Of a stretch of DNA of 64,000 bases, positions 2,810 through 56,724 are shown one piece after another (within the stretch, counting starts at the first letter, position 1; the number at the start of each line of letters is the position of its first letter). The stretch is taken from NCBI GenBank assembly GCA_002633005.1, contig NMRA01000318.1, forward strand, positions 450,083 through 514,082, written 5' to 3'. A program made the translations under genes and the position numbers. The notes below the pieces were generated by a model, which ran no database searches, was not told where the DNA came from, and saw nothing but the letters and a program-made list of their open reading frames with translations. This DNA is from Phoronis australis (Eukaryota; Animalia; Phoronida).

Positions 2810-4206
2810 ATGTCTACGACAGCCTACAACTGCGATTTTGCATTATGTGACTGCGACAGCGACTCGTTACAACATAATGTGGACTAGGTTTTACTATGTT
2901 CAGATGTTTTGACACACATGGTCATTCTTCTGACTATTGTTTTAAACTACTTGTTCTCTCTTATTACAGTTCCCATCGACACAGAACAGTTCGTAAGTAT
3001 CCTAGTTGAATAAAAAGTAAGGTAAAAAATGTTTTGTGGAAGAGGGAAATTTTCAAGAAATTTTGTATAAATTACAGGTGAGTGAAAATTAGAATTGAAG
3101 TGACATTATGGGTGACAAAATTCCTTTTTTGAGATCTGCTGCAGCGCGGAATTGAACCTGTCACCTCGTATGTTTTAGTCAACACTCTGCAGGGGCGGAG
3201 CTAATGCTATTCGATAAGTGTCTTATTGTGGTAAAGTCTCCAACTTTGATTTCAGCCAATGTCTGGTAATAAAACCACAAAAACAGAGAAAATTTTATTG
3301 TTTTGTAACTCTGTTCAAAACTCGTAACTTCAACAACAATACAACACACAAATGCGCTTTTTCGGGCCAAAAACAATAATGTCCCTTGAGAGACGTGTAA
3401 TTGTGTTACCTACAACAAAAGTGTCACATAAACTTAAGATTACTTACAATTATAATAACTTTTTTACAGAATGATTTTCTGGAAGAATTTAGGAGTTTGA
3501 GAGTGACGATTGAAGAACAGAAAAGCCAAATCACAGCTTTAAAGCACGAGCTTGAAACTCAGCGAGAACAATTTCAAACCCGATTTGATCAGCTGGAAGG
3601 GAAAATAATGCAGTTGAAAGATGAGAACAGACAATTGGGAAGGAAGGTGGAGAAGGCGGAAACTGGGAAGGTTCTGTTTATCATGATTTTAAATATCAAG
3701 TATAACCGTAGTCGTAGTCTGTTTTGAACATACATTCGGGCATTAAATAAACGGGTCCTTTCTCAAACTGCCTTGTCCCAACGTTAAGCTCGCTCCAAGT
3801 TGTCTTGTTTGGTTTCAACATGAAAAGCATTGCCTATGCGCTGGGTTATTTCCATTTGCATCTCCCTCCCTCTCCCTCTCCCTCCCACTCCCTACCTCCA
3901 TCTCTCTCTCTNNNNNNNNNNNNNNNNNNNNNNNNNNNNNNNNNNNNNNNNNNNNNNNNNNNNNNNNNNNNNNNNCTCTCCCTCTCCCTCTCTCTCCCTC
4001 TCTCTCTCTCTCCCTCTCTAGCTATGACAATTGTATTGTGCCTAGTTATGAAGTTATGATCATTGCATTGTCCCTCTTTCCTTTATTAGAATGCACTCCA
4101 CCTAACGCTCCTTGCGGCGGGAGGGGCGGCACTGATGGGACCGGCGGGACTGGCTGCAGTGATTGGATTGGGTGGTGCCGCTGCATGCAAAGCATTGGAT
4201 TACTAA
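2810..4206 (+). CDS. Locus A: spliced small coiled-coil protein with Gly/Ala-rich hydrophobic C-terminus (possibly a pseudogene); exons about 2810-2887, 2970-2992, 3470-3670, 4090-4206
   Basis: Canonical AG/GT sites: ttacag|2970, 2992|gtaagt, ttacag|3470, 3670|gttctg, tattag|4090. Exons join in frame as PIDTEQF-NDFLEEF...KAETGK-NALHLTLLAAGGAALMGPAGLAAVIGLGGAAACKALDY*. The first exon (ATG 2810) hits TAG just before its donor, so the start is uncertain. Confidence 0.6.
3862..4020. repeat. CT-rich microsatellite containing an assembly gap (N 3912-3975)
   Basis: (CT)n/(CCT)n tracts on both sides of 64 Ns. Confidence 0.95.
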
Positions 4207-4296
4207 GAAACAGCCAGCGATGACGTCACACCGGCCGAGTGAGCAATGGTCGTCATGTGTTGAGTTCTTAGAGAGTCTATGTGTTGTTTGAGTTAA

Positions 4297-9149: not shown

Positions 9150-9800
9150 CCTCAGAACACGCAGCCTGACAATAGGGGAAACATCAGGATAACATTGCCT
9201 TTTGTGCCAGGGATCGCTGACCAGATCAAATCTCATATGAGGGGACACGACATTGCTGTTGTATTCAAACCTGTTAACACCATTAGGAGTACACTGTGAA
9301 ATGTGAAAGACAAAACCAGCAAAGAGAAAACATAAAATGTGGTGTATGGCATTTCATGCTCGGAACCAGGGTGTGGAGCAGCATACATTGGGGAAACCAA
9401 ACAAGCCCTGAAAAGTCGTTTCAACCAGCATCGGAGGTCCAGTTATGGGGACTGCTATGATTCTGCAGTTTTTAATCACATGGCTTCCACAGACCACTCT
9501 TTCGCCATGGAAGATGTGAAGATCCTGGATAGAGAAGAAAATTGGTTTCGGAGAGGAGTCAAAGAAGCTATCTACTAGAGAATTGAGAATCCTAGCCTCA
9601 ATAGACAGGGGGGCTGCGGTTTCACTTACCTAGTACATGGGATAGGGCGCTGAAGAGAATCCCGCGGAAACTGTACGACAGGTCACATGACAAGACACGT
9701 GACAACTCAGTGGCCTGATGAAGTCCTCGAGAGGAGGACGCAACGTAGCCATCTCCACGTACCGTAAGTCCAGTAATAGATTTATTGATTCTTATACTAT
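9150..9800 (+). mobile_element. Penelope-like retroelement 3' fragment (GIY-YIG endonuclease)
   Basis: ITLPFVPGIADQI...VFKPVNTI, VVYGISC...YIGET, SAVFNH, ILDREENWFRRGVKEAIY and PSLNRQGG, with in-frame stops. Confidence 0.92.
9709..9752 (+). ncRNA. Minimal type I hammerhead ribozyme of the Penelope element (GAAA core changed to GCAA)
   Basis: TGGC-CTGATGA-A-GTCCTC-gagag-GAGGAC-GCAAC-GTA-GCCA: stem I TGGC/GCCA, 6-bp stem II and cleavage triplet GTA. Confidence 0.8.
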
Positions 9801-12348
9801 AACAATCATTCACTACATTTGAAGTGACAAGCTGCAGGTAAAAGGCATTTGATTAAACGTAATAACACACCTCCTGCTCTCACCCTCTCTGCAGTGAACA
9901 TATCGAATTTACATTTAATAATAAGGCCATCTGGGTAAGTGGTTGTGACTGTTTGCCAATGCCTGGAAATAATTAACAAACATATACGCAGTTTTACACT
10001 GGCCAATACTAGCATATTAATGTTCAATAGTTAGTAATACGTCAACCACTCATGCCTCCACGGTTGCCATGGTCATTTCGTTGAGCACGCATTGACTACA
10101 GTAAATGGGTTGACAAATTTAACATTGCTTTACGTTCTTTTCTTAAGGAGGCGACACTACTCTAATGTGCAATTGAACACACCTCAGACAACAGACGGCG
10201 TACTTAAATAAAGCAAAATTTGCCATCACAGCAGGTGCTGCTAGAGATCACAAAACTTATCCATTGAGAACAGAAAGAGTTGGCAGTCTAAGTAATAAAA
10301 AGTCAATGGTGAAAAGAAAATTGTAAGTTGTGAAAAAAAATTTGCAAAGGGCGAATGTCTAACATGAACAGTAACTGGGGTACATATTCATTTCCAGTTG
10401 TGTGGAAGCAACTTATACCAATGACCCAATGATGGTGCTGAAATGAGATGAAATTCTCTATGGAGAATCTGACACACGAGTGGAGTCTTTTGACAGAGTG
10501 TTCAATAATGTAATGGTTAACCAAAGAGAAGATTTTGAAAGAATAAAATGAACTTTGGCAATGTAAAACCTACCTAAAATTTAAATGATGTTAATGTACA
10601 ACACAGTGACTGCCGCAGTAACTGCCTAGGGAATGTTTTTGCTGTGAAGCACAGCGTGTATCGAATACACAACACAAATACGTTCTGTATACAAGACTTT
10701 CATACCAAAACATATAGTCAAAATGTCCTGGTTACACAGGTGTTACGCTGTGTAATTTACTCCCGAATAATGTACACAACATAAATGATCTAACTGACTT
10801 TTGTAAGACCCATTTACATTTCTTGATGACTCGACATGTGAGTGCCACATTTGTGAGTACACTAAGACTGTAATGTTTTAGACAGTTTTTTTTTCAATAA
10901 ATGTCTATCTATATGTAGTTCTCTTAAAACTGTAAAATGTTGTATAATTTTTATTCACCTTCTGTCGAGGAACAGCACATGTGCTAATGTCTTATGTGTT
11001 TGTGAACCACACCAACGTGAAATACACCTTTCGATCCCCCTAAACTCCCCGTAGATCCGCTTTTGGCATTACTTGATCGTTGGTATACATACTGTCTTAC
11101 TGTGAGTGACAAACATCAGTTACGTTTTACTTTGAAATGTGTTTACAAAGTACAAAAAAGTAGACAAAATTTTGTTAGCAAAATAAGTAATATCTTTTAG
11201 CGACCAATGATATGCGACCAAAAATGTCAATAAAGTTCGTTCTAAGTTTTTTAGGCGTATTTAGGCCCCCTTGCTTGTCTGCCAACAAGATTACTCTACA
11301 AGACCACAAATAGTAAAAATGACACAGAAATAAATTTTGCCATATTAGTAGGATGCTGCATCTAATTGTGCGCCTGTTGAAATGTAAAAAAGACTTCCGA
11401 GTACAGTGGTCGTGTAGTGTAGTCGTAAAGCTGCAGGAACATACTGGCCTAAGAGATTCAGAGAACTGAAGCAGACGACACAGCCACAGGTATTTTGCCA
11501 CGAACGACATTTATGTCATTCAAATACAAATCTGATGGGAAGTAGAACAGACAAACTCAACAGTGCTACATTTTGTTTAACACACGTGCCTTAATTGGTG
11601 CTTCTGTCAACAATTGGCTGGAAATTTTCGAAAAACGAACGAAAATCATCGGCTTACCCTTCAATATCCGCCATTTTGCTACGCCTTGTACTAGCGTGAT
11701 CTTGCGAAGTCTTGCGAGACCTTGCTTTTAAGCTAGGTCCTAGCGTAGGTCCTAGCGTTACTGTACGCACGTCAGGTGTATTTGCCTGCTTCCTTAATTT
11801 ACGTTTGTATTGTTACCGTATTTGCATGAGGGTCCACCATATGACAGGTGTGCTTAAAAGGCCTGTTTAAACTGTGACATGGTTGATAAGAATGAAGCAA
11901 TGAAAGTTACAATGGTTATATTTCATAACTCGTGTCGAGCTCCGCCTGAATGGGACACTTGTGCAACATTTAGTACCAATTAGCGTTACAGATGAGGTAT
12001 AATGTAGCTAATGGGCAAATTTGCTTAATAATGGCTATGAAATCATCATCATTTTATGCACTGTATTGACGTTAGTCTGATCTGAATTTCAACATTCATT
12101 ATACTTACCTCAGATTTTGAGTTTCGAAAAGAAAGATATTAATTGAGATATATTACACGGTTTCGGAGATTTTCTTTCATTGTTGGACCGAGAACGTGTA
12201 ATTAACGCAACGTTTTAAATTAACTATGTCATTGTCAGTTCGAAAATATATGCTACTGATTTTGAGTAGCAAACAGGATTAGCGAAAACCGTAATAATCT
12301 AATTATGACAATTAAAACGAAATGTATGGTGTCTCTTTTGATTATTAG

Positions 12349-12423
12349 GGTCTATGGGCTTTGGGAGCCTTGGGATCCGCTTCATACAGTGGCAGCAAAT
12401 TCTTGTTCCACAAGTTGAATTAA
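12349..12423 (+). CDS. Orphan or alternative terminal exon of the coiled-coil gene family (GLWALGALGSASYSGSKFLFHKLN*)
   Basis: Acceptor attattag|12349. The upstream intron (11930-12340) aligns with 56210-56570. The downstream motif CACACCG.CCGAG...ATGGTCGTC.TGT is shared with the 3' UTRs after 4206 and 56724. Confidence 0.5.
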   Translation, partial: GLWALGALGSASYSGSKFLFHKLN

Positions 12424-13099
12424 CACTAAGAAGACGCCACACCGACCGAGAGAAAAGAATGGTGAGTGAGCCATGGTCGTCGTGTTGTGTTATTTGTGAA
12501 TATTGCTTGACATGTAATGTAATTTAACTTTTTGGGGTTGACTTGGTAACAGTCATTCATTCAAACATATAGTCTTGAAACTCCATGTTATCAGATTTTC
12601 AACACCATGTAAAAAGGATACTAAACCCTGTTTTGATTTCGACGATTTCAGCCAATCCTCGTTCAAGTATTACCGGCTAATGCATCAATGTTGTCAATCC
12701 TGAAAGATGAAAGCAGGAATCAACATATAAAAACTCATACCTCTTCTTTCACAAATTGGACATTGTGGCTTTGGTGGGTGCTTTTTCCGAGTAATTTGCT
12801 AAAAACGTAAGTCACTTTCACCCGTTTAGCAGAATTTGAAAGGAGTTTTCAAAATTTCCTTCAAACTTTTGAGGATTGTGGAGGGTTACAGAGAACTGCA
12901 CGGGGAAGTCGTTTTTAGTTTATGTTAATAGGCCAATATCGGGTTTGGTATCCTTTAAACTTTATAAGTGCCTACTGGTGGAGAGGTTTCGAAAACGTTT
13001 GGTGTGCCGGGACGAATTAGAATCAAGACATTGTACGAATTCGTTCAAATACACAGTAAACATAAGAGTACTGCTATACATCCTTGCCATGTTCTAACA

Positions 13100-16600: not shown

Positions 16601-16649
16601 CTTGAAAATCTTAGTTCATCATTTGTTTAAAGTAAACGTAATCTATTTT

Positions 16650-19479: not shown

Positions 19480-21200
19480 AACGACACTTCTGAGTTGAAG
19501 ACTACGTGGATGCCTTCTGGCAAATCTCGACAACACTTCTGAGAGGTCTATCGGCATGTTGTAATGAATATGTATCAATGCAAGTGCCGATGGAGGATCG
19601 TCAGTGGCGGATCTACGATACAATAAGGAAGGGCCAACATCCGAAGATGACGTCTCGGGTAATTGGGCAAAGCATGATTGTGTTTGCAGCAGAGATCCGA
19701 AAGTTGCGGGGACCGGTCTTGTGACCCTTCTGTTCGGAATACCTTGTCCGCTACCGTTCCTGGTTACTCAGCATTTCCTCACGCTTTGCGCCGTTGCTGT
19801 TCCAATTTGCTTTCGGCAGCCTAAATCCGCCTATGATCGTCATTCATACAAGCGCGTGTAGAGACGTCTCAAAGTACTTGCACTTCGCTCACATCCATTA
19901 CTAGTGACAGGTAGTGTGAATCTGATACGCAATAGCGTATGGATGTTGGGGTACATCATGTCATCGCATGGTTCAAGCGCTGTCCTCAGTGTTGAAGGAA
20001 GTTGATCTTCAGGCATGACCCACAACTGGACGCGCCATTTCAGTAACTTGTCGTCAACTGCATCTGGAGATGGAAGATCTGCAGCGTATGTGGTTAAGGC
20101 CGATGTTTGGTTTCTACATGGTGGTCATAGCAGTAAGAACGACACTAATCACAGTGGCCACTCTTCTGTGTAGCTCACTGAACCGCGTTTCGAGGTGTTT
20201 TCTAACGTGTACAATAAATGGTTGATCCTGCAATATTGCTCAGGAAGAAGATCCAACACTGTGTCACTATTACCCCGGTTGTGCTGGACGCCATGGTGAA
20301 AGGTCTTCCTTCCCAGCCATACCCTAGGCAAACGCGCAAACACTGCTGAACGACGAATCCAGAGCTATATGATCGCACACAGGACAGGTCTCGCTTATCA
20401 TGTTATAGGCACTTACAATATCAAGTTCGCGACCTTGCGACATTGTGGTTATCCCATAAGTGGCTCACAAACTTGTACACCACTGCGAAATTTACCAAAA
20501 AGATCAAAGGAAGGTATAGCATGTAAAATACTGGCTGCTCTACCCCTGTCTTCACCTCACTAAGAACGATAGAAATCGGGATTGTAGCATCCAACGTGCA
20601 GGATGTTGCTCGAACCAACGTGTTTTTACACAAGTCGATGATGTGCTTTTTGCTCCCGCTGCTTGAGCAATATCAACGAGGATTCGCCCATTTTTGGGAA
20701 AAATAAGCACGTTTCTTTTAACTTATAAGTCTTGTTGCGGATGCTGTATATGGAACATGACTGCGCTATTACCAGACTCAAACAATGTGATGAACAGTGC
20801 ACGTAAAATGCTAAAGGGGCTTTCTTTCTTATGAGAGCCTGTGAGCCGTTCTGAGCACTGGACATATTAGAAGCGCCGTCGTATGTCGGCCCTCTCATGT
20901 TGCTCATGTCCATTTTCAAGTCATCGAGTAATACTCGCTGTATTTCATTCTCAATGTGGTCTCCTGTAATCATCTTAAGTGTATTGAGCCCCTGGTGGAC
21001 CTTTATACGCATTCCACCGCATGGCTCGAGCTCCCGTGTTATTCATCGATATTACAGCTATGAATCGTGCATTCGCGGAATTGAACAGAAGATTGACTCC
21101 TTTGTCTGCTTTTTCAGAGGTGTACTTTTTTGCTCTCTTCGTCAAATGGATGGCTCCTTCTAGCCCCCCGAGCCTCCCTCCCCCGAGTACGCACGTGAAT
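19480..21200 (-). mobile_element. hAT transposase remnant (ZMYM1/P52rIPK-like, with hAT dimerisation domain)
   Basis: RGPTYDGASNMS...APLAFYVHCSSHCLSL (20626-21012), YPNIHTLLRI..TLPVTSNGCERSASTLRRL (19840-20025) and ALALIHIHY..PIDL..FARRHPR (below 19600). Many frameshifts. Confidence 0.88.
19602..19835 (+). mobile_element. MITE, CAGTGGCGGAT...ATCCGCCTATG family, 5-bp TSD ATCGT
   Basis: TIRs are visible and ATCGT lies at 19597-19601 and 19836-19840. The element interrupts the hAT C-terminal coding region. Confidence 0.85.
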
Positions 21201-21490: not shown

Positions 21491-22040
21491 AGCAAGGCTT
21501 CGTTACCAAACTGCGAGATATTAGGAGCAAACGACACCAACTAGATGTTCATGATTCTCAAAGCCGCTGTTCAAACTAGCGACTTTCACATCATCACTGA
21601 GGGCCCTCATGGACAGCAATGTGAGGTGATGGGGCTACCCTCATTGTAAATATTACATTTACAAATAAATAAATGAATAAATAATTGACGGAATGGAAAA
21701 GCAGTTATTGCTTTTTGAAAAAGAAAAACGTTCGTATAAAATACTTATACCAGCCATGGTGAGAATGCTAAAAGAACAGAGTTCTTTCATAAATGTTTCG
21801 GTTCCTTGTGTAATCAAAAGTGAAAGTCATGGAGTTAAATTCCTTCTCCTTGAAGACCTGTCCTCCCATGGATTCTTTCTTAAAAATTTTGACAACAAAT
21901 TCGATTACGATAACTGCAAACTCGCTGTCGAAGGAATAACCACGCTTCAAGTGCCATCTTTGGTGTTAGGTCAGGGTGAGGTTGAAAATTTTGGATTGAT
22001 TTTGAAAGAAAGTTGTGAACGACTTCAAATTCATTGACTT
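21491..22040 (+). pseudogene. EcKinase/CHK-kinase-like (DUF227) fragment
   Basis: LFEKEKRSYKILIPAM...VP...FLLLEDLSSHGF...FDYDNCKLAVEGITTLQ resembles the F..E..FY..I.P / LEDL...GF / L..LA.FHA pattern. The catalytic C-lobe is missing. Confidence 0.6.
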
Positions 22041-31828: not shown

Positions 31829-33133
31829 TTTTAGACGCTACGTGAGCCTACGTTCCACTATACCATAACTTACGATGCGTAGGTGCTACTTTAAAATCCA
31901 AAATGTAGTGGCTGCGCTTATGTGCACTTACAGCACTGATTTTAACCCAGAGACCGATAAGCAGCCTACGTACAGGAAATGACACTCAGCTGTTACGCAG
32001 TGAGACTTAGGGGAAATTTCATTGGCACGATGATGTCATATGTACCACTTTACAATGATTGGTTGAGAATTTCTCTCGAATGGGTTACGAATTATGGCCG
32101 AAATTTAAGTCGCAATTAATTACTGTCTGTGTTGTGCAAGAAACAAAAACAATATTTCATTAAAAAATACTTGTATTTCTGGTGTTAAAAGAGTGTTTTA
32201 GTCGCTGGAGGCCATTTTAAAGCGAGCTCAACAGGAAGCTATTTTCGTTCAGCATTGTATGTAGTGTCAGCGATAGCCTTAACTAAAGATAAGCTGCCTC
32301 ATATGAAATACACTTGGAACCTGGCCAATTTTATTGCGCACCATAAAAGCTTCGATAAAGGTGACAATTTTGCACTTTCTAAGAGACGTCTCAAAGATGG
32401 CATCTGGCGGTAAGTACATGTGATGTTTTTGTTTATGTTGTTTTATGTTCAGTAATTACTAGGTGGAACATCTCAAATACAGACGAACTAAGTGTATAGC
32501 ATGGAAGTATACCAATAAGAAGCGTATTTCAAGTATGTGATATAATGGTGTTCCTTCTATCTTGAAATTGCAGATTTTTGTATTGTTTGCGTTAGTTCAT
32601 TTCTCTGTTTGATAATAATTTATCACTTTTAAGGACACATAGAGGATCGAGAAGCAGGCAAACTTTTTAAAAAGAAACGGAAATTTGCAATGCATATAAC
32701 GCAAATCATATTAAGTATAATTTTGCACCCGTCTTTAACATTTAACACAAAGTCAAGTATTTGTTGGAATCATCCAATTGAAATTTAAACCATTTTAATA
32801 GTGTAATTTTTCTCTAATGGTTGACAACCATTTCGACATTTCTAATTCGTTTCATATCACTTAATTGAATTGTAAACAACATAATATGCAATAGCACAGA
32901 CGCTCAAATTATGAACATAAAAGTTTCACCTGTTAGTCTCGTTATTTTCAAAGTTAGGGATTGTATTGTCTGATCTCATCTGTTAGCTTTATGGTCTAGG
33001 GATACATGTATGTACTGCAAAAATGAATTTGTGATAAGTACATATAATACGAACATGATGTTCGTAAAACTCTTAATAGTTCAAGACCAAAACGTGATTT
33101 TACCTTGCTTTGCCCATGATAAAATCATGAATA

Positions 33134-33425
33134 CGATTCCCCTGATCCGTAGCAGTTCTAAGCCGGCTGTCAGACGCTCGACGAAGCGAACAGCCTGAGA
33201 GCGTATGCACTGCTGAGGCAGTCCACGGGAAGGTCCAGGCAACGTTCCGAACACGACCTGACGGACTCGTTCAGTCCACGCCCGTTCCAGGCCCGCATCC
33301 TACCCCAGCCCGACGGACCCAGTCCTTAGAGCCAATCTTTTTCCCGAAGTTACAGATCTAATTTGCCGACATCCCTTACCTACATTGGTTCTACTCGACT
33401 AGACCTTCTCCGGATATGGGTATGG
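33134..33425 (-). rRNA. Dispersed 28S (LSU) rRNA fragment, non-functional
   Basis: Reverse complement of conserved eukaryotic LSU blocks: GATTCCCCTG.TCCG..CAGTTCTAAG, CCTTAGAGCCAATC.TT.TCCCGAAGTTAC.GATC...TTGCCGAC.TCCCTTACCTACATT and GGATATGGGTA, with an internal deletion. Confidence 0.9.
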
Positions 33426-33869: not shown

Positions 33870-34860
33870 GGCAACCAGTGAAGAGTACCCTTGCGAGTTT
33901 GGCGAGATTGTCGAGTTTGGTTGGTGTTCACCTTTTTTATCATTAATAGAGATGATTAGCGAAATTTTTTGTAGAACAAAGAACGATATTTGGTTTGGCT
34001 TCCATGTTGAACGCACGTGACTAAAAAGTTGAACACATGTGACTAAAAATGACCACGAAAAGTTTTTTATTGCTGTTTAGGTACAAAATATCTGACAATA
34101 AAATTATTGTTGAAAATGAGGTACAAATCATAATACATATTCAATGGATCGACATCAGACTACGTAGTGCTCTTGCGAGTTTGGCGAGTTTGGTGAGTTT
34201 GGTTGAGCTTGACTTCGCTGTCATAGATTTATATGAGAGTAGAGTATCCTTGCGAGTTCGGCAAGTTTGGCGACTTTAGTTGAAATTGACCTTTCTTACC
34301 ATAGATAGAGATGAGCATAGAGTATCCTTGCGAGCTTGGCGAGTTATAGAACAAGGAATGATATTTGACTTCCACTCATTGTTCACGTTACTAAGAATGA
34401 TAACGTAAAATATTTTATTGTTTAGTAGATAAAAAATCTGTGTCACTAAAACTATTATCGAAAATGAGCTGCAAATCACAACACATGCTGTGATAATTTG
34501 ATATGTGAGACGAGTTCGTTGCGAGTTGGGCGAGTTTGGTTGAACTTGATTCTGCTATCACAGATCTATGTGAGACTAAAGAAACCTTGACAGGTTGGAG
34601 AGTTTGGTTAACCTTGACTTTACCATCATAGATATATGTGGGACAAGAGTACCATTGTCTCTCATAGAGAGAGAGAGGTGAACCTGGAGCGTGTTTGGCG
34701 AATTTGGTTGAACTTGACTTTGCCATCATAGATTGTGTGAGACAAGACTACCCTTATCAGATAGGGAGTTTGGCGAGTTGGGTTGACTTTGATCTCTAGC
34801 TCTCATATATAGAAGTGAGCCTAGAGCGAGTTTTACGAGTTTGGTTGACCTTGATCTGCT
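33870..34860. repeat. Degenerate minisatellite, about 60-70 bp unit
   Basis: Recurring AGAGTA.CCTTGCGAGTTTGGCGAGTTTGGTTGA.CTTGACTT.GC.ATCATAGAT. Related units occur at 60100-60258 and 61460-61500. Confidence 0.85.
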
Positions 34861-44289: not shown

Positions 44290-46720
44290 CTATTTTCTAA
44301 AATCTCTGTCTTGATAGGGAAGAAATTTTTTAATCACGTGTTCGGCTGTTTCATCTCCCAGACTGCATTTTCTGTACACTGTGTCCTCCGCTCGACCGAG
44401 TTTGGCAATCCAATATTTCAACTTTATGTGGTGTCCGCTGCGTAATGGACTGAGAGAGACCTGCTCCTTCCCGCTCATCGTCATCTCTGTGATGCGGTTG
44501 ATGTTGACGCCTCAGTTACCGTGCACTCGTTGTGTTCTCTTGTGAGACGCCGGTCCGCCTCTTGTCGCTCTCCGGATTGCCGTTTTGGCGTTATCATAAT
44601 AGTGGTATACTGCTTCCTGTTCTTGTTTGGTACCCTCTTTTGCCACTTCGTCGGCCAGATCATTCCCGATGATCCCTGTAAGGCAGGAACACCAGGTGAA
44701 GGTGACTTGGCAGCCTCTTCCATGCAGCTCGGCAAGGGTCAGCATGATGTGGCGTTCGTCGTCGTTGTTGGGTGGCTGAGATAAATGGATTGTGTGAAGG
44801 CGTTGAAGCACCGACTCATTGTCACTCACTATTCTGACATCTCTTGCTAAGTCTTCTTCTTGGATCACCTTCAGGGCACTGCTGATGGCCTCCATCTCCG
44901 CCTGGAACAAATAGCACCACTTGCTGGTCGCATGGATGGCCTGTAGTGACAACGACTTCACCACCGCCTGTCGTATTACCGTCCATTGCTGATCTGCCTG
45001 TGTCGTATTTGCTCCATCATTCCTCAGTCGGGCGATGGCCCACTGCCGGTCCGCTGCCACATCGCCCGTTTTGCTGCCCATCGTCTCGAACCGATTTTCA
45101 CCTATTTCTAGCCATGGGGGGAGAAGTTCTGCGGCCCTTTGGTGTCAAAGATCGATTTCCATACTTTCCTGGCTATTTCTCTCCAGCTCGTCTTCTTCGT
45201 CCGCTGCCGCACAGTCTTGTCTGCAGTCTGATATCTTGGGTTCTGGTTTGCCTGTCTCAGTGATTTCTCATAGGCGATATGGTCGACAGGTTCGCTGCCG
45301 CAAGGATAGCTTCAGCTGGGGTCGTGATTGCACGGAATGCAAATCTCTGGCTTGTCTCCAATTTGTTTATAGTTGATTGTGAGGCCCACGGCAACCAAGC
45401 AGAGGCAGAATATTCAACTGTTGATCTACACGTGGCAATCAAAGTTGCTCGGGGTGCCCTTGTCATACCCCTAGTCTGTGGACGCCAAGTTTTTCAGTGC
45501 ACCTGCCCGTCTTCTCGTCTTCCTGCTAACCATCGCACCGTGTGGGGCGAATGTCAGTTGATGATCGTAGGAATTTTGGTTGGGGATGTACCGTATGGGC
45601 TGGCCGTTTAGAATAAGAGAGGGCTTCGTGGGTGTTTGTGATAAAGAACGAGCACTCGGACTTCTAGACGGCAATTTCCATCTTCCACTTGTGACCATTC
45701 TTGAATCTTATCTAGCACGGATTGAATCTCCTTCTCAGCTTCCGCCAGGTCATTGCTCTGTGTCCACCAGGCCACGTCCGCATACAAGCTCACTTGCGGG
45801 CTCCGGATGAAGTCGGGAAGGTCGATGATGTAGAAGAGAAACAGGAGGGGTGATAGTGCCGATCCTTGCGGAACGTCTTGCTTGAAGTGTACTGTCTAGC
45901 TCTTCACGCTGTCTAAGGTCACCCAGGTCAGGCGGTTGGACAGCCACATCTGTGTCCAACGAATAATTTTCTGCGGTACGCCGCACCGTTGCATCTTCAG
46001 AAGAAGAGCATCACGCCAAACTTTGTCGTAAGCTCGTGAGTAATCAATGAGCATCAGGAGGGTTCTTTGCATGGGGGTTCTGGAATCCATCACTGATTGA
46101 TGGCGACAAGCGGAGTAGTTGGACTTCGGTGCTGCGCCCCCGCCGGGAAACCCGCTTGATTTTGGTGTAGAGTCTTCGTTTTTTCTACGATATACCTCAT
46201 AAAGTTGGCCATCAATGGCTCCATGGCTTTCCCGATTGTAAAGGTCAGGGATATGGGTCTGTAGTAATCTCGCTGCTGATGTTCTTTGGCTGTTTTCGGG
46301 ACAGGTCGGATATCGACTTGGGAGACATTTGTCGTTGACCAGGACAGATAGTAGATTCTCAGTAGGAATGACTTCGCTACTGGTCCTAATTGGTGGAGGA
46401 ATTTGTGGTGAATCTTTGTCCGGTCCTGGGGGTTTTGAGAGTTCTTAAAAGACTCTTCAGCGCTGCTCTTAACTTGGAACTATCCGCCCTCATTCGAGCA
46501 TTCAACGTCTTCTTCAAGCCTCTATCTTCCTGCTCAATCTTCAACTATCTCACATTGCGGTACATTCTTACAAACGCGTCTGCTATATTCCCCGGGCTGA
46601 CATAGTTCTTGCTCTTGTGTGTGATGATTCGGGCGGTATCTTGTCCTTTTTGGGGCGTTCAGTTTCCGAAGGAGCCAACACATTTCTTTCGATCCTTGGT
46701 TTTGCTGCGTGGAGGATACG
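44290..46720 (-). mobile_element. RNase H-containing non-LTR retrotransposon (I/Ingi/Nimb-like group), 5'-truncated and degenerate
   Basis: RT motifs LIDYSRAYDKVWRDALLLKM, VPQGSALSPLLFLFYIDDL and SLYADV. RNase H motifs AEMEAI, IVSDNESVL and GIIGNDLADEVAKEG. C-terminal LRSGH...C...ETAEHVI knuckle. Confidence 0.92.
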
Positions 46721-46889
46721 TTCGTTGTAATTAGACACTCTGAGGTCTATGCTTTCTGCCGTCGTATCAACCGGGAGGATAAGTAGATTACGTTCATACA
46801 GGAACTGATGAGTAATAATAGGCCTAGTCTCCTCATTACTGTTATATTGATTGGTTACAATTGACTGAGAGCGCTGGCCCAGGGCAAGG

Positions 46890-47700
46890 TGTACCTAAAA
46901 CCTACACGGATAAGTATCTAGGATTTGACTCCCACCTCCTGTTAGTTCGGCGTGATCTGGACACTTGCGTACAGAGGGGAAACCATTGTTTCAGATCACG
47001 TGAACAAGGAAGAGGAGAGATCACACGTGAACCAGGCGCTATCTAAGCGCGGCTACCCCAAATGGGCGTTCACTAATGCAGGTAGGACGACTGAACATAA
47101 GAAAAGGGAACGTTCTTTACCGGTGACATCGTTTCTGCACGTTAAAGATGTCGGAGAAGCTAAAACGTATCTGTAGCCAGTATGGCATAAGGGTGACACA
47201 TAAACCGGTTAGAACATTACGACATTTACTTTTCCATATTTAGGATAACCCAGAGTAAGAACAAATAAGTGGAATTGTGTATGGAATTCAGTGTGAGGAA
47301 GAGAACTGCAAGGCCATGTATATTGGAGAAACAGACCAACCATTAAAACAGCGCATGTACCAAAATAGAAGGGTTGCTGGTGAGGGTGTGTCTTTGGCTG
47401 CTTTTAATCGTCTCCGGGACATGTCGCGAATTTAAGAGCACAGTTCAAGATTGAGCTCGGTTCAAAGTGTCGTCCACAAGTGTTTATGTGAGGTCGGTAA
47501 CCAGAGCACGACACGGCGGTTCCCTCCAATCTTCAGTACCATCTTCCCTTTGAAAGAGGCACGATGCCTCCGAGGTTCTAGGTGCTCAGTTTTGTGGTTA
47601 TTGTCCTGCATACCAGATTTTGTTGGAGTACAACCTCTGCGGTTCATTGCTTATATTACTATTACACTCTGTTATTTTTCGCATTTAGAAAAAATCTTTA
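46890..47700 (+). mobile_element. Penelope-like element 3' fragment (RT thumb plus GIY-YIG)
   Basis: TYTDKYLGFDSH, ALSKRGYPKW, THKPVRTL and GIVYGIQCEEENCKAMYIGET. Confidence 0.88.
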
Positions 47701-49765
47701 AATATGCATTAATTTAGCTACCTCTTCATTAATTTTAGTTACCTTTTGATATAATCATAGACCATCAACAGGTTATGTAATTCGGTTGAAAAATGGAGGC
47801 GACACAAAAAGTTTTAGTGACAGTAATTACTATAGTAGGAACCAACACCGGTACAATAGAATGCAAACAAACGCCACGTGTGCGCGGCGCGACCTCAGCC
47901 GCGCAAGATCGCAGTTGGCATTCCAGAGTGATAATTAAAAGTAGTCAATCAACCAAGCAAAGTTCTTGGCGTTACATCTCAGCTATGGAGCTTTGCATCT
48001 TGTTCACATTTTACCAAGGTGGAGGTGGGGCAACCCCACGTGACAGCCGATTTTGGTGACATTCAGGTATCAAAAGTCACACTTACAGTGAGAAAATCCA
48101 GCGTAACTTCGGAAATGTTACTGGAGCGATATCCCTAGTAAAAAGTTTTAGATTTTGCTCCCGTTTTGTACCGATTAAGGCACTAGTCGAGTTTGGTGAA
48201 GCTGGCATCTTTTCTAAAGTGAGAGCGACCAAAATCCTGTTTTGGCTAGACCAAATGTTTTTGTTGTGATATCTCAAGAAGGGAGCTTATGCATATGGAC
48301 ACACACGCTCGCGTACACACACATACACACACACATATAGATCTTTATGTGAAGGGAAGTACGAGCGACAGTAAAATTTCGTGACATTTATTGCTGATGC
48401 TTTTTACGCTGGAGTCTCAATTGTTTTCATGCTGAAAATTTTTTAACTATCATACTTAAACAATTGGAAACCTAAAGGCTTCTGTACTTCGCTTAGTTTT
48501 CAAGACCACGTAGAAAATGAGTTCACTTGCTCTAGTGAGAAGGAAGTACACATATCTCATACAGTACTTTGATACTTGTTTAATTTCAATGTTGGTTCAA
48601 ATCTTTTGATTCAATCTATAAAGTTTTCCCCTTTGTGGGCTGACATTTGGGGATTCTATGATATGAAATATTGTGAAAAGGTCCAAAACCTTTTTATGGG
48701 ACAAGACTCTTGTCAAACAGTTCTATGAAATGTGACACATATGCATGTGGTCTCATATTGAAAGATGGGTACCCAAGTTCCTGTTGACTGGCTCCCCTGG
48801 ATTTGCAACTTCCGCGTGCCTATGGTGGTAGATGAGACCACGAGGGTAGGGAGGAATTGCTGACGATAGGAGGAAATATGAAAATCGGAAACACGGCGAG
48901 CAAAAGCGTCGCGAAATCGAGTTAGTTTGCTCCTCCCAACTATGACTAAACGTTAATAACAAAGACTTCAGCCTTTTCAAAGAATTTTGAAGCCTTCAGT
49001 CTCGGCTCATGTACATGCATCGGTCTCCTTCATCAATCGAGTTTTGCTGCTTTTAAATTCGATTTCCGAATTTACAATTTACGAATTACCGAATATTTTG
49101 ACCCATTTTCTTTCACATTTTAACTGTTTTGACTAATTCATAGTATCTCTTGGTGTTTGATTGAAGCGTGGCTCCAAAGACAATAAAATATGTATACAGA
49201 ATTATTTAATTTTCGTGGAAGACCCCCTCTTGGCTACATGCCTTGAAAGTAGCGAGTAGTATCAAATGTTCTTATTACTGTCCCGGGTAAGTAAGTCATA
49301 TGACTTCTGGGCACATTGATGATAATAATCAATAGAAAATCATCAATAATTGTCATTATTTGTGTATATGACCGTGCACATATCAACTGAATGTCAGTTC
49401 AAGACGCAAAATCAGAAAATTATATTTATAACAAAATTCCAAAGTAGTAGGTATACTTTTCTCTAGACTAAACCTTGATGATATAATTGTTGCCATAGTG
49501 ATAAGCTTCGGGATTTCTACCACCTAACGTACTAGCATTGCAGCTGGTCCGCTTTCTACATCAGATACAGACGTAATTAGAATAGTCTGGTATAATTTGA
49601 GAATCTTGTCACCTTTGCCTCACAAAATGAGTTGACTGCAACTCTTTACAATATTATGCGGACTATCTAGGTTTAAGTGTTCTATGTCTACATGTGTTTT
49701 GGCTCGCATGTACATTGTTCTGGCTACTGTTTTAAACTGCATGTTTTCTCATTATAATTACAGGC

Positions 49766-52700
49766 ATGACCACTGACGAGGTGAAGGTAAGATGTAAGGT
49801 AGAAAATGTTTTGTGGAAGAGGGGACTTTTAACGAATTTTTGCATGAATTACAGTTGAGTGAAAGTGACGTTATGGGCAAGAAAAGATCATTTTCTGAGA
49901 TCAGCCCCATTGCGGGATCGAGCATGTAACTTTCTTCGTTGTAGGCAAACGTTCTACTTGCGGAATTCAATGCCATTTGAATGAAGTCTAGTATTCTAAG
50001 CGTATTTAACTTGTAAAGACACCGGCATTAATTTCAGCGAATGTCTGGTAGACAATGGTGAGAGTTAGCGATTCGTAAGAAATTCCCAAAAACACAACAG
50101 TTTTCATTGTTTTATAGCTCAAGTCAAACCAAAAACTTAAGAAATTCAACAAAAATATTACAAATACGTTTTCGCGGCAAAACGATAATCACCGGAGGTG
50201 TCCGATTGTTTAAGGTTTATATTGGACCTTATCGGCAAGACAAATACCACCAAAAGCATATATTTTCTGAAGGTAGAAATTTCGTAGAACTTGAGTTTCG
50301 CTTTTTACAGATCTGTGTTTATTTTGGTCCCGTGACCATGCTTTTAGTATAATTTGATAAAAAGAGAGGTACGTTCATGGCAAAACAACGCTATCAATCA
50401 ACAAAATTTGTATGATAGCAGTGTTTGAGATAAAGTCTCAAAAAGGCTGTTACAGTTTTCTAAATTATGGTTTCGTTTTAGTTTTATGCAACTTCAAAGT
50501 TTTTTCACAACAATCTGTTCAAGCTATATTTTTGATAGCCTTCAAGCAAAAGTGGAAAATCTAAGAAAACAATTTGTAACTGTGTTTTAGAGAACAGTGC
50601 GTAAAGCAAAGTGCATGAAATTTTCATATAAATCCAATCAACCATTTCTGAAATATCATGCTCCAAAGGTGGCTAGAATTGGACATTTGTGCAGGGTACT
50701 ACATACCCTTAACGCGCAACAGAAGCGTCAGATAGAGATTAGCGTCAGCGTACCCACAGTGCATCCACGATCGAAAGCGTGGCGATTTTCATGGAACAAG
50801 TGGTCTTTCCTGTTGAAATCTCTGACACACACAGCTTGCAATATTCGCGTGCCAACTTGTTTACTGAATCACACTTCCGCAAAACTTTGTTGTCTTGCAT
50901 CCATAAACGGCGACAGTAACAAGCTGAAGTAACAGAAGAAGCAGGCGACATCTATGTTATCCATTTTTCTAAGAACTGTACATGAAATGGTTTTGAAAAT
51001 TAATAAAATTTAGTTGCTAAACCATCCAATTTAACCTGGTCTTCAGGACAATACTCATAAAATTAGAAATTAAACTCTTAGTACCTTGCAGGCATCACAC
51101 CTCCTTCAAATGGAAAATGAAATTGAAGACTGGCGGGAACCATGGTCTCTGGCTTCCTCACCAAATCTCATGTGGTTAGCAACCTCATGCAAGTTCAATC
51201 CCAATCTCTCCATCGTGTGAGGGTTTGAATGACTTGATAAACAAACCTCCTGGACACCTCTCTGAATCCAGTTTATTTTTTCCTGTGCAAGATCTTGACA
51301 AGTCATTTTTAATTCGAGACCTGTGTCCTGGAGGTGCTTAAACACAGCAGAAGACACGCATTCTCCCCTGCAGACCCCCTATATGGGTACATGCCCTGTT
51401 TCTATGACACAAATATCTCCCTCACAGTGAATTCAATTCACAATTCCACTGACACGGACTTTCTCTTGTGAATCCTTAGGATGGATAAGTATCTGCCGTA
51501 ATGTTCTAACTGGTGAATGAGTCACCCTCATGCCACACTGCCCACAGATATACGTTTTAGTTCCTCCGACACGGAAAAGATGTCATCGTTGAAGGACGTT
51601 CTCTGGTGTTACCGTCACTCACCCTACCTGCATTCGTCAACGTCCATCTTGAGTAACCGTACATAGCGATGTCCTGGTTCACGTGTGATTTCTCCTCTCC
51701 ACTGTGCCCAGGGCCCGAAACTATGGTTTCCTGCCTTTCTGCATGTGAGAGTCCGGATACCGACATTAGTCTCCACTAACGGGTGGTGGGAGTCGAAGGC
51801 TAGATACGTCTTTCAACTGTGACATCGTTTCCGTACGTTAAAGGTGTGGCCAGTATGGCAAATTAGCTGTGGCCGATGAACCGGTTAGAACATTACAGTA
51901 GATATTAGTACTTCTTAAAGATTTTCAAAAGAAAGAGCGTGTTCGTGGAATTATGTTTGGAATTCAGTGTGAATGAGATAACTGCTAGGCTTCGTATGTT
52001 GGAGAAACAGAACAACCGTTATGTGCCAAAATGGAATGTCTGTAGGTGAGGGTATGTCTCCTGCTGTTCTACTCATCTCCAGGACACAGATCGCGAATTT
52101 AAAAATGACAATCCTGAGAGAAAAACTATTTTCAGGGAGGTGTCCAAGAGGCTTTGTTAATCAAATCACTTAATCTCTTACTTAACAAACTTCGGTTCAA
52201 AATGCCGTCTGTTAAAGATGAGTGTATGCATCAGGCTGTTAACCAGACGAGACCTCGGAAGATAGCAAGAGGCGACGGTTCCCGCCGACCTTCAGTACCA
52301 CCTTCTCTTTGAAGGAGGCGTAATGCATCCGAGGTGCTAGGAGTTTAATTTTGTGAGTTTTGTCCAGTAGAGGAGATTTAATTCGAATACAAGCAGTGAA
52401 AATTCCTCAATTTATTTTAAGTAAATTGCTACTTGTCAGGAAATCTCCACGACTTCCAGAGATCTGATTTGGAAACGGTGAGCTGTGTAGTCGATCGTGG
52501 ATACACACTTTTGCAAAACAAGTGAAATGTTTTGTATTGCATGTAAAATATTGGTCTCTTGATCGATTTTCCCTTAGCTGATATCTTTCGAAAGCTCATA
52601 AAAATATGTATTATTACATTGAGTATGTTTTTCAGAAATCTCACTGAATTTCTATGTAAATACAACAATAATGCGAAAAGGCGTCGAAAATGAGTACATT

Positions 52701-55700
52701 TACTTAACAATAACTTTTTGACAGAAGATTGTTTTGGAAAATTTCGAAGAACGCCCAGAAGGCTTCTTAGAGGAAATGCCAGCAGCAATCAAAACTGAAT
52801 ATCAACATGTTAAAAGACCGATCAACAAACATGATGAGGAACTTGAAAGCCTCAAAGCGCAGTGCACAGTCCTACAGCAGGAACTTGAGCAGTTTAAGAG
52901 TCAAGAGAAAAATCGCTTCCGCAAATACAAGGTTTGTGTTTTATCATAGCTTTTAAAATCTGGTATTTAAGGGATACATGTCCTGTTTCTGTTACATGTA
53001 TTTTCCCTCACACTGAATTCCATGCACAATTCCACTGGCACGGACTTTCTCTTGTGAATCCTTAGGATGGATAAGTATCTGCCGTAATGTTCTAACTGGT
53101 GAATGGGTCACCCTCATGCCACACTGCCCACAGATATACGTTTTAGTTCTTCCGACACACGTTTAGCGTACGGAAAAGATGTCATCGTTGAAGGACATTC
53201 TCTGATGTTACTGTCACTCACCCTATCTGCATTCGTGATCGTCCATCTTGTGTAACCGCACTTAGCGAGAGCCTGGTTCACGTGTGATCTCTCCTCTCCA
53301 CTGTTCCGGGACCCGAAACTATGGTTTCCTTTTTGTATGAGAGAATCTAAGTTACGACACAATTCTCCTCTAAAGGTTGGTAGGAGTCGAATGCTGGAAA
53401 CGTCTTTCAACTGTGACACCTTTTCCAGACGCTAAAAGGTGTGGCCAGCATGGCAAATTAGCGGTGGCCCATGAACAGGTTAGAACATTACAGTAGATAT
53501 TAGTACTTCTTAAAGATGTGCAACAGAAAGAGCGTGTTCGTGGAATTATGTATGAAATTCAATGTGAAAGGGATAACTGCTAGGCTACGTATGTTGGAGA
53601 AACAGAAAACCGTTATGTGCCAGAATGGAAGGGCTGTTGGTGATGGTGTGTCTTCTGCTGTTTTACTCATCTCCAGGACACAGCTCCAGAATTTAAAATT
53701 GTCAATCGTGAGAGAAAAACTATTTTCAGAGAGGTGTCCAGGAGGCTTTGTTAATCAATTCACCCAATCTCCAACTTAAGAAACAAGGAGGACTTCGGTT
53801 CGAAATGCCGCATGTTAAAGCAGAAGACAACTTCCTTTTTCGTGTAAGTTTTAGTAAAAATGTGATTCGTTGATTATTCAGACATTTGTTTCGGTTAATA
53901 ACTGCTTCCCGAAATTTTATTAATTAGTTGTGCTTTACTTCGGAAGTGCCGTTTAGGGGATTAAGAATTTCCCGCCATTTCTTCTTCATGTAGTCTGACT
54001 GTTAGACCTGACGAGTCAGTCATGGCTTTACCTCGGATGTAACAAGTTCGGTTGTCGTTTGCGTTTGTTTACGAGTGAACATGCCGCAAGATTGCTGCGT
54101 ACCAGGGCGAACTCATTATCGTCTTTGGGTATGCCATTACACCGCTCTCCGAAAGATGACACGCTCCGCCGTACATGGCCTGTTCGTGTGAAGAACGCAG
54201 CGTTACCGTCCACACAACTTAAAAAACTGTGGAGAACTACCGATTGTGTGACAAGCATTTTCTGCCTTTGAATTACGAAAGAGATATGTGCATGGAATTG
54301 ATGAGAGTTCCTTGTAAAAGAACCCACGAAGAAGGGTGCCATACTGCCGCTGTTGATTCCTGGTAGTGCCCCGTAGCTACCCCCCGAGAAGTGCATTTTG
54401 GAAGCGAGAAGCCTTGCGAGCTGTGGTCTCTACAATGGCTGAGGCCCTTCACCTACTGTCACCCGTGCCTCCGAACTTACCACCAGAACGTGCAATTCCG
54501 GGAACTAGCAGTGATTCTCCCTGTACTGGTGTTGTCTCCAGCCCAAAGCCTGTAAGTAGCCCTGCGGTGATGTTGATTAGTGGGAGTCAATACAGGCCGA
54601 TTTCGACACCCAGTGAGAGAACAATTCGTCGTTCAGTAATCAAGCCGGTGAACTAATTTTTTAAGTTCATTCTGGACTTCACTAAAGCATTGGTGCTATT
54701 TGGAATGTGCCAGGTGGGTGGCGAGGGAGTCATATGGCTGGATGTAAGGGGTTTAGGTGTTTAGGTCACCATCAAGTGGGAACAGAATAGGCATTCCGTT
54801 AAGATCGACATGATAGTGCACACTTAGCCTTGCACCAACACGTCCCACCACGTCTGTCCTCAGTTTCTGCCTCATCCCTCTCAACAGCTGTCTGTATTCC
54901 GCCTCACTAAAAGATTCCTAAATCCAACACAATTGAGTTCTCTAACAACCCAGCTTGTCGTAGAATACTCGTCGATGGGAAGTGGTGACAATTTTAGGAG
55001 ATCAGCATGAAAGCTCAGATCCTCATAGTAACTCGAATGCACTAGAAACGATTTACATGAAATGTTTAATCCCCTAAACGTCACTTCCTGAGTAGTGCAC
55101 GACTATTTAATAAAATTACGAATAGCTGTAATTAAGTGAAGCATGTGTTTGGGATAATCAACGGACCGTATTTTATAAACATGACACGAAAAAGGTTGCC
55201 TTACCCTTTAAGGATGAGTGTTTGCATCAGGCTGTTAACCAGAAATGATTTCGTGATAAAACACGAGACGACGGTTCCCTAACCTTCAGGACCACCTTCC
55301 CTTTGAAGGAGGTATGATGTCTCCGAGGTGCTAGGAGTTTATTATTTTGAGTATTGTCGCCTTAATTTAATTGGAATACAAGTAAACTGTTACTTGTTAG
55401 GAAATCTCCACGACTTCCAGAGACCTGATTTGGGAAACGTTGAGTTGTGGAGTCGATCGTGGATACAGCCACACTTTCGTGAAACAAGTGCGATGTTTTC
55501 TATCGCGTGTAAAATTTTGGTCTCTTGATCGATTTTCTCTTAGCTGATATCATTCGAAAGACCAGAAAAATATATATTATTACGTTGAGTATGTTTTCCA
55601 TAAATTCCACAGATTTTGTGTGGAAGTACAAAAATATTTTGAACAGGCGTCGAAAATGAGTACACTCATGTTACAATATCTTTTTGACAGCGTCTTGTTC

Positions 55701-56724
55701 GCGCAAATTTTCGAAAAATCGAAAACGACGTATCAAAGAAGTCACGAGCAGTCAAACATGAAGTTCAAGGAAAGGCCGACAGAGCTGAAGTTGAGGAACT
55801 CAAGGAGAAATTAATATCCACAGATCAGAAACTTGACCAGTTGTTGGAAACTATCACCAGAGATGACAGGGTTTGTGTTTTATCGTGGCTTTAAAGTGTA
55901 GTAATTCCGGGGACGTTGTCTGTTTTGGGCTTACATTTGGATATTGAACAATAACTGTCCTTTCTCAAAGTGTTTTGTCATACCGAAAGCTTATTTCAAT
56001 TTATCTTGTTTGATTTCACTATTTCATTCAATTTGCAGTACAATGGATCAACCTCTAATTCCTTGTCATTTGTGTATTAATTTTGCCACACAAAAATCAT
56101 GCCTTTGTCTAATATACGCTGGGTCATTCGTTACGGTATGTTGTAAGTGCAAACAGCTGCTCACTCTGAAGAACGAATTGAGATACTGTAGAATGTTTGG
56201 TTTTTTATTGATTGTATGTCGAGCACGCCAAGTGTGGGACATTAGCGTAATATTTGGTACCAATTAGTGTTACAAATGATGGAGTTTTACCCAAGTTATA
56301 AAACCATAATCTCTGTATGCACTATGCTGACTAGGGTGACTCACATTTCAAAAAATTGGCCAATTCATTATATTTACCACAAATTTTACTTTCAAAAAGA
56401 AAAGTTCATCGTAATGCTTCGGGGAGTGTTTCTTGTTATGGGGTCGAGCAAAGTATATGAAGGCTATGTCAGTTCAAAAAAGCTACCTGTATTGTGAAAC
56501 AAAAAGGATTAGTGGACATCTTCATGTTAATATAATTGTGACAATTATATTGTGTATGTTCTGTTCATCAGGGTCATCGCGATGAGCCTACCACGAAGGG
56601 CATGACGATAACGGATGCTTTCAAACGTGCAAAACAGGGATATCAAATCTTCTGTATGATCAGGGACATCTGGGATACGATAAAGCCCTCAAGAGGGAGT
56701 GGAGAAACCGCGATGAAGTCATAG
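49766..56724 (+). CDS. Locus B: spliced small coiled-coil protein (186 aa if all exons are used); exons 49764-49786, 52725-52931, 55691-55870, 56572-56724
   Basis: All junctions are AG/GT and phase 0, giving MTTDEVK-KIVLENF...RKYK-RLVRANF...TRDDR-GHRDEP...AMKS* with no internal stop. An upstream exon ends ctag|gt at 49670. The introns are homologous to locus A. Confidence 0.68.
51060..52400. mobile_element. Penelope-like element in head-to-head inverted arrangement (minus about 51060-51808, plus about 51810-52400)
   Basis: The minus arm starts at YLAFDSHHPL and runs through GIY-YIG remnants. The plus arm restarts at VTSFPYVKGV. Both are the same family as 46890-47700. Confidence 0.85.
52971..55910 (+). 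repeat. Tandem duplicate of about 51384-52970 (Penelope arms plus coiled-coil exon), later interrupted by a Kolobok
   Basis: 53030-53420 aligns with 51445-51830, and 55212-55690 aligns with 52215-52724. Confidence 0.88.
53819..55207 (+). mobile_element. Kolobok DNA transposon (internally deleted): THAP remnant on plus, KolX-like remnant on minus
   Basis: TTAA TSD (53815-53818 / 55208-55211), AG...CT termini and imperfect TIR AAG.CAAC..CTTTTTCGTG. The empty site GTTAAAGATGAGTG is at about 52211. THAP remnant MPQDCCVPG...LHRSPKD..LRRTW...YRLCDKHF (54081-54360). Minus-strand EDRRGGTCWCK...CTIMSILTECLFC (54760-54870). Confidence 0.88.

Follow-up and report, generated by a model that had tools for sequence, protein, structure and literature searches.

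The window analysed here, 64,000 nucleotides (nt) from the phoronid Phoronis australis (assembly GCA_002633005.1, contig NMRA01000318.1, positions 450,083 to 514,082 of the forward strand), is animal DNA of about 39% GC with many transposon remains. It carries a small coiled-coil gene family in three copies: locus B, which is a real spliced gene expressed in three of four RNA data sets, locus A, and a partial copy, C. With profiles of five intron and untranslated-region (UTR) blocks, the 64 kb yielded no other full copy. We think it very probable that the exons of B are under positive selection. The original prediction, made from the letters alone, had proposed a lineage-restricted hypervariable family under diversifying selection, and this proposal is supported. 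None of the four outcomes that it had named as refuting came about: B has spliced reads, exon identity is below intron identity, the ratio of non-synonymous to synonymous divergence (dN/dS) is about 3.3 where measurable, and no homologue was found.

The RNA evidence for locus B comes from four data sets, X1 to X4, mapped on 49300-57300 at 85% likeness. X1 consists of contigs, taken to be RNA by guess; X2, X3 and X4 are raw runs, of each of which about 18-19% was read. None of the runs listed by the sequencing-run search was recorded as RNA, and one run had a small share. The features of locus B, all on the plus strand, are the following.

49202..49286 (start approximate), plus strand: likely untranslated first exon, donor GT at 49287, lying just outside (14 nt) the mapped stretch.
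49764..49786, plus strand: 23-nt micro-exon (B1), in which translation likely starts, at the ATG at 49766 (MTTDEVK), spliced to B2 in X1, X2 and X3.
51385..55914, plus strand: tandem duplication, found by self-comparison, from which B2 and B3 arose; the unit, of about 1.6 kb, consists of a repeat fragment, an intron and a coiled-coil exon.
52725..52931, plus strand: coiled-coil exon 1 (B2), 69 codons, spliced in X1, X2 and X3, with a helix predicted by AlphaFold.
55691..55870, plus strand: coiled-coil exon 2 (B3), 60 codons, joined to B2 in X1, X2 and X3.
56572..56724, plus strand: terminal coding exon (B4), 50 codons and a stop, with a predicted amphipathic helix at residues 13-37 and a joint to B3.
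56725..57100 (end approximate), plus strand: 3'UTR with AATAAA at 57076; the X1 contig reaches 57061 and seven X2 molecules end at 57075.

All three joints of B lie within a single X1 contig of 976 nt on the plus strand, the last of them with an exact GT..AG, and each recurs in the raw runs: B1 to B2 in 100 reads of X2 and 60 of X3, B2 to B3 in 53 and 52, and B3 to B4 in 56 and 49. Minor forms use an in-frame alternative donor 12 nt downstream of the micro-exon (nine reads in X2, three in X3) or skip B2 (four and two reads). Depth over B reaches 200 in X2; it is zero in X4 over both the exons and the conserved 3'UTR, and B is switched off or absent there. The RNA ends near the AATAAA at 57076, and an Rfam scan of the whole window placed no histone stem-loop after the B stop. 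Read from the micro-exon ATG, the gene encodes a predicted protein of 186 amino acids (aa).

From the micro-exon onward the gene model of the original prediction stands, and its 5' end needs correcting. Both 23-nt micro-exons were borne out (2970-2992 in A, 49764-49786 in B), the phase-0 heptad exons A2, B2 and B3 are open, the terminal exons A3 and B4 are open to their stops, and from the micro-exon on every intron is GT-AG. The proposed upstream exon ending CTAG|GT was not borne out: in both loci it has an in-frame stop shortly before its end, the copies differ by a 4-nt indel, its donor is weak, it is conserved like intron (27/36, 75%) and, among the joints listed, its presence in RNA amounts to just 25 X1 letters in the bin (depth 17.6 of 187.6 over 267 nt). 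It is probably intron. A better candidate for the 5' end of B is the exon ending at 49286, whose donor at 49287, preceded by ...CCGG, is the sole strong donor motif within 48000-49763. On the 5' side of the micro-exon, 85 letters of the X1 contig find no place, and the match of the contig runs just one letter upstream of the micro-exon, which fits an exon ending in GG, since an AG ending would give two. When 49286 is joined to the micro-exon there are stops upstream in frame and the first in-frame ATG is that at 49766. Thus, B likely starts in the micro-exon, downstream of an untranslated exon. With this first exon, an out-of-frame ATG at 49266 would open an upstream reading frame of eight codons whose stop overlaps the main ATG (49266-49286 with 49764-49769); such a short frame could damp translation.

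Locus A and copy C, also on the plus strand, have the following features.

2810..2846, plus strand: possible coding first exon of A, speculative, with ATG at 2810, a weak phase-1 donor at 2847, a 125-aa frame and no reads.
2970..2992, plus strand: A micro-exon (A1) of 23 nt, lacking an ATG, with AG/GT borders, flanking introns 75-80% identical to those of B, and no reads.
3470..3670, plus strand: A coiled-coil exon (A2), 67 codons, open frame, hydrophobic at 7/8 a/d heptad positions.
4090..4206, plus strand: A terminal coding exon (A3), 38 codons and a stop, with a Gly/Ala-rich hydrophobic tail (predicted membrane anchor) and a downstream 3'UTR motif common to B and C.
11888..12540, plus strand: copy C, known from sequence comparison, comprising the last intron, terminal exon C3 (12349-12423, 24 codons and a stop) and the start of the 3'UTR.

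Self-comparison pairs 2855-3380 of A with 49634-50189 of B, and 3677-3817 with 55879-56018. Block identities were scored by formal alignment against shuffled controls, and exon identity proved lower than intron identity, as had been claimed. Five intron blocks are 80% (z 9.8), 75% (z 16.1), 70% (z 5.5), 65% (z 3.4) and 73% (z 13.6) identical between A and B, a sixth, before the terminal exon, is 56% (z 4.0), and the start of the 3'UTR is 68% (z 7.6). In the exons, z is 0.3 for the micro-exons (5/23 letters in common without gaps), 3.3 and 2.4 for the coiled-coil exons, and -0.1 for the coding parts of the terminal exons. The two intron blocks that the original prediction had matched by eye between A and B align at 93/111 (84%) and 48/64 (75%); a third pairing, 11930-12000 with 56215-56285, also aligns (50/70, 71%), but it belongs to the partial copy C and not to locus A. 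The tails A3, B4 and C3 are mutually unalignable, yet they lie between homologous acceptors and a homologous 3'UTR motif. In the region mapped for A, reads on both strands pile up at 2420-2575, 2716-2774 and 3234-3400, which points to a dispersed repeat, so that part of the similarity in the A1-A2 intron is that of a shared repeat.

Copy C is 59% identical to B over 483 nt, with 73% (z 16) in the intron; the corresponding self-comparison block pairs 11888-12352 with 56169-56575. C3 is in phase with A2, and to judge by sequence C could be a mere remnant or could serve A as an alternative last exon. Since the A micro-exon has no in-frame ATG, A has no secure start codon and an upstream coding exon would be needed. 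Just upstream of A, at 1273-2272 on the minus strand, lie broken tyrosine-recombinase frames (Pfam Phage_int_SAM_1 and Phage_integrase), likely of a DIRS-type retrotransposon, which may have cut off the first exon of A. The same four data sets were mapped on 2280-3860 at 80% likeness, and a few X3 reads fall at the edges of A exons only. Of the RNA that had been expected at the predicted junctions, then, that at the B joints is found in X1, X2 and X3, and the A micro-exon and A2 core have none; one of the three copies, B, is shown to be expressed. At 14% neutral change, the open frame of A would have survived with a probability of 0.14 if indels are left out and 0.006 if they are included, and for this reason A was probably coding through most of its history. 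A and C may be older copies, either silent in the material sampled, missing from the animals it came from, or dead since recent times.

The strongest evidence for selection comes from the tandem duplication inside B. Its units are 85.6% identical over 856 nt in one part (51385-52217 with 52972-53820) and 77% in another (52212-52751 with 55208-55718), and the second unit is interrupted by an insert of about 1.4 kb at about 53820-55208. Within this insert, both strands of 53839-55173 are covered by many reads in each of the three raw runs, at a depth of up to about 120; this part is a repeat family transcribed from elsewhere in the genome. B2 and B3 were compared in a frame-preserving alignment scored on nucleotides, with three gap penalties, a bootstrap and a shuffled-codon control. 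Their identity at codon positions 1, 2 and 3 is 45, 57 and 73%, and over the three penalties dN is 0.74-0.75, dS 0.21-0.23 and dN/dS 3.2-3.5 (bootstrap P<=0.003), so that the ratio, about 3.3 where it can be measured, is not below 1. Shuffled codons give proportions of differing non-synonymous (pN) and synonymous (pS) sites of 0.49 and 0.55, by which the low observed pS is real and the pN is at the random level. The neutral yardsticks of the same duplication agree with the silent sites: the intron is 84% identical, the repeat fragment 85.6%, and non-coding divergence of 0.18-0.27 matches dS, with dN three times higher. In bins of 51 nt, identity between the units is 0.78-0.92 outside the exon and drops to 0.55-0.70 at the exon border.

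A similar picture is given by the expressed forms, taken here as alleles or very close paralogues of B and compared with the window. X1 differs at 12/165 positions in B2, 20/181 in B3 and at least 10/154 in the coding part of B4, that is 42/500 coding positions (8.4%) against at most 4/337 (<=1.2%) in the 3'UTR (Fisher P=1.2e-6), and 27 of the 31 coding differences listed are non-synonymous, four being synonymous. Among the best-supported differences, X2 and X3 have 10/11 of the listed X1 changes in B2, but 2/10 in B3, which suggests mosaic alleles; they have no mapped reads at 56612-56627 in B4. Measured against the window, the expressed forms are shorter by 21 nt where B2 starts, have the same length at B2/B3 and, in X2 and X3, are shorter by 9 nt at B3/B4; each difference is a multiple of three, so that the frame is kept. 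Near the end of B4, at 56693-56696, two classes of reads can be told apart in X2 and X3 (51 and 54 of 105 X2 reads), both with an insertion of two letters; these insertions, seen among the best-supported differences, would shift the frame of the last 10 or so codons, barring a further indel. Gene conversion between B2 and B3 was considered as a source of the allele differences. The allele letter equals the sister letter at 6/21 sites (6/10 where the sisters differ), and this source was not adopted, because retention of the ancestral state predicts the same match.

In single-exon AlphaFold models B2 is a single helix (residues 20-68) and B4 has a helix at residues 13-37, with pLDDT 82-94 over residues 11-40 and hydrophobic residues recurring at helical spacing. 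The seven-residue micro-exon peptide that forms the N-terminus is charged, no 19-residue window of B2, B3 or B4 exceeds a mean hydropathy of 0.06, and B has two cysteines in all, one in B2, none in B3 and one in B4. The statement that no signal peptide is visible therefore holds for B by hydropathy, and given the micro-exon start the protein is predicted to be leaderless. The A3 tail reaches a Kyte-Doolittle 19-mer maximum of 1.85 at its C-terminus and resembles a tail anchor; C3, at 0.83, is mildly hydrophobic.

No search returned a match to a conserved family, and the original prediction has gained from this; each protein query was one exon of 38-69 aa, and this limits sensitivity. Pfam gave only generic coiled-coil matches below the threshold, among them the kinetochore families Spc19, Spc24 and MAD, and the tails had no match at E<=0.5 (families listed: 13 for B2, six for B3, none for B4, the best 25 of 45 for A2). 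Word-index searches yielded, for B2 against longer proteins, 14 candidates, none of which scored, and nothing for B4 against longer proteins or for B2 against proteins of near length. HMMER with A2 over 1.84 billion representatives returned two matches, P0001 (2751 aa, a 29-residue match) and P0002, the latter dismissed as a relative for being a generic heptad repeat. The best ESM Atlas score for B4 was 0.80 (recognition 1619), at chance level, and the search of PDB sequences gave one match for B4 (7jrq, E 0.047) and two for A3 (E above 6), with no meaningful structural relative. In a metagenome scan, a 21-nt intron motif common to A and B had no match, and the B2 protein had 149 pattern matches, none confirmed. 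We take these blanks as weak to moderate evidence for an orphan family. The open-access full text searched gave no published account of such a family.

Cytosolic proteins under selection of this kind most often face a pathogen protein or a germline competitor. The explanation that we favour, tentatively, is that B is a cytosolic coiled-coil protein, locked in an arms race with a pathogen that lives in the cell and offering it a bait or a surface for recognition. In such a mechanism the rod would oligomerise through its coiled coil and present an ever-changing surface, the C-terminal helix would place it on a membrane, and the driving partner would be a pathogen inside the cell. With the fold kept by the heptad pattern alone, nearly every surface residue could vary, with larger evolutionary steps added by the duplication of exons or an exchange of tails. 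A bolder and rather doubtful extension is an undescribed intracellular recognition system in which leaderless coiled-coil rods diversify at toxin-like speed. Unrelated membrane-binding tails would be exchanged on the rod through tandem exon duplication, exon skipping and a choice of last exon (A3 or C3 on A2), so that allele-specific baits would come to sit on different membranes. The exon-over-intron pattern is of a known kind; a leaderless coiled-coil scaffold with exchangeable tails would be the new part.

Several results weigh against the explanation favoured here. The significant dN/dS rests on one exon pair of 60 codons. For the X1 differences pN/pS is 1.8-2.5; by itself this falls short of significance (P 0.05-0.20), and it is based on 31 of about 42 differences. 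A2 aligns with B2 or B3 no better than shuffled codons do (ratios 0.5-1.0), so that selection between A and B is not measurable, and a three-exon MAFFT alignment was poor and set aside; between A and B, silent sites too look more diverged than introns. Locus A has zero depth over its micro-exon and A2 core in 4/4 runs. For the membrane step, the hydrophobic moment of B4 is not significant against shuffles (P=0.084), and A3 alone among the tails is clearly hydrophobic. The pathogen was picked on prior grounds only, because the runs carry no label of tissue, stage, sex or infection and neither a partner nor a homologue was found. The role in recognition or defence put forward by the original prediction is inferred, and the present evidence does not separate defence from germline conflict.

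Such a conflict would entail the same positive selection with another opponent, B being a cytoplasmic or membrane protein of sperm or egg, a coiled-coil protein of meiosis or part of a selfish toxin-antidote or drive system. Meiotic and kinetochore coiled-coil proteins evolve fast, a gene limited to one sex or to the gonad would fit the all-or-none signal in three samples from the same study, and the abalone sperm-protein precedent in the title of Metz 1998 was counted in its favour. The Spc19, Spc24 and MAD matches, being below the cut-off and generic, speak against it, as does the apparent absence from B of the signal peptide that known acrosomal proteins have in the excerpt of PMC9022041, and we regard this origin, the main rival of the favoured one, as unlikely. 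We find it improbable that B is a leaderless membrane-lytic effector, a cytolysin of defence or venom that is set free when cells rupture, or by non-classical secretion, and is active through its C-terminal helix. The three tails are indeed short, helical or hydrophobic, and unalignable, and venom genes too show intron and UTR conservation above that of coding exons together with wholesale switching of exon segments (PMC7285919, in the part available); but B has neither signal peptide nor disulfide scaffold, its tails find nothing in Pfam at E<=0.5, and no meaningful relative of solved structure was found.

The orphan status might also be an artefact of a partial model, with the exons forming the last part, or a detached fragment, of a larger or conserved gene that has recognisable domains upstream. 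The 85 unplaced letters of X1, the A micro-exon lacking an ATG and the use of single-exon queries leave room for this, but it is quite improbable: the X1 contig is just 976 nt long, the best candidate first exon has in-frame stops, the micro-exon offers an ATG, and neither the protein-level searches nor the DNA-motif scan gave a relative. Very improbable, in our opinion, is an absence of positive selection, with relaxed constraint, exon-focused hypermutation or unusually constrained introns instead. Synonymous sites between A and B look randomised, A and C may be dead, and part of the intron similarity (2420-2575, 3234-3400) is dispersed repeat. Relaxation or hypermutation, however, does not predict a dS equal to intron and repeat-fragment divergence with dN three times higher, by which the idea is largely refuted for B2/B3; the open-frame probability of A (0.006-0.14 at 14% neutral change) and the frame-keeping junction indels of the expressed copies also oppose it.

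Returning to the arms-race explanation, the exon-faster-than-intron mark, known from secreted toxins, sperm proteins and surface receptors, is met here on a probably cytosolic coiled-coil protein. B suggests an intracellular conflict in a little-studied animal and is a concrete gene with which to test for it. The duplication of B2 and B3 is a clean natural control, in which silent sites, intron and co-duplicated repeat agree on age and amino-acid sites are three times as diverged. Moreover, the conserved introns and 3'UTR can be used as probes for paralogues and alleles beyond the reach of protein searches.

Elsewhere in the window lie remains of various kinds.

9336-9575, plus strand: GIY-YIG endonuclease fragment, likely Penelope-like; judged by eye, the repeats at 46914-47633 and 51025-53820 seem to be other decayed elements of this class.
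19843-21042: remains of a hAT transposase.
21681-22034, plus strand: intronless 118-codon fragment like ecdysteroid kinases (EcKL; Pfam E 1.2e-10), whose Atlas clusters are mostly arthropod or nematode, an odd affinity for a lophotrochozoan.
33122-33373, minus strand: isolated degraded 28S rRNA fragment (Rfam RF02543, 85 bits), the sole Rfam match in the window.
44300-46900, minus strand: broken LINE with an RNase H domain.
62625-63013: tandem repeat of 81-nt period and 96-98% identity, with a more diverged array at 33882-34826.

Among known systems, venom toxins have disulfide-rich folds. According to the excerpt of PMC7285919, snake venom phospholipase A2 (PLA2) and three-finger toxin genes have coding exons less conserved than their introns and UTRs, a KA that equals or exceeds KS, and exon segments replaced by unrelated sequence (ASSET); the toxins are secreted and their signal-peptide exons conserved. 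The B family is alike in its non-coding conservation and, for B2/B3, in dN above dS, but it differs in having no signal peptide, two cysteines, a coiled-coil body and no sequence match. Abalone sperm proteins reportedly, going by a title only, show non-synonymous above intron substitution. Sperm lysin and sp18, as far as the excerpt of PMC9022041 describes them, are small acrosomal proteins with a signal peptide, tandem duplicates and divergence that hides terminal exons from homology search. B likewise is small, has a tandem duplication and shows non-synonymous above intron change, but it is predicted to lack the signal peptide; the lysin family is not among the Pfam matches listed for B2, B3, B4 or A2 (the best 25 of 45 for the last).

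Genes of resistance, recognition and immunity give other parallels. In the portion of PMC7494358 at hand, PTC1/GRC and PTC2 of the snail Biomphalaria glabrata are hyperdiverse resistance genes, clustered, lineage-restricted, lacking known domains, with strongly diverged alleles and limited to certain haplotypes, which encode single-pass surface proteins with synonymous above non-synonymous divergence and old haplotypes. The phoronid family is clustered, orphan and hyperdiverse too, whereas in it dN lies above dS and the non-coding DNA has diverged little; as to a single transmembrane segment, hydropathy is 1.85 in A3, 0.83 in C and 0.06, thus none, in B. The cytoplasmic Botryllus protein BHF, in the excerpt of PMC12065747, is polymorphic, linked to recognition and held at the inner membrane face by an N-terminal cysteine anchor, and is largely disordered, not highly polymorphic and not under strong positive selection. 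It resembles the proposed role of B, with no homology, and differs in that B has long predicted helices, cysteines numbering 1/0/1 in B2/B3/B4, and positive selection. The closest functional analogues for the proposed intracellular defence are the pals genes of Caenorhabditis, described in the excerpt of PMC9882112 as clustered, divergent genes with species-specific expansion and an ALS2CR12 signature that control intracellular immunity. No family named ALS2CR12 is among the Pfam matches listed, from a library not confirmed to include such a model, and there is no sequence link between the two groups; both, however, are made up of clustered, divergent genes of obscure biochemistry.

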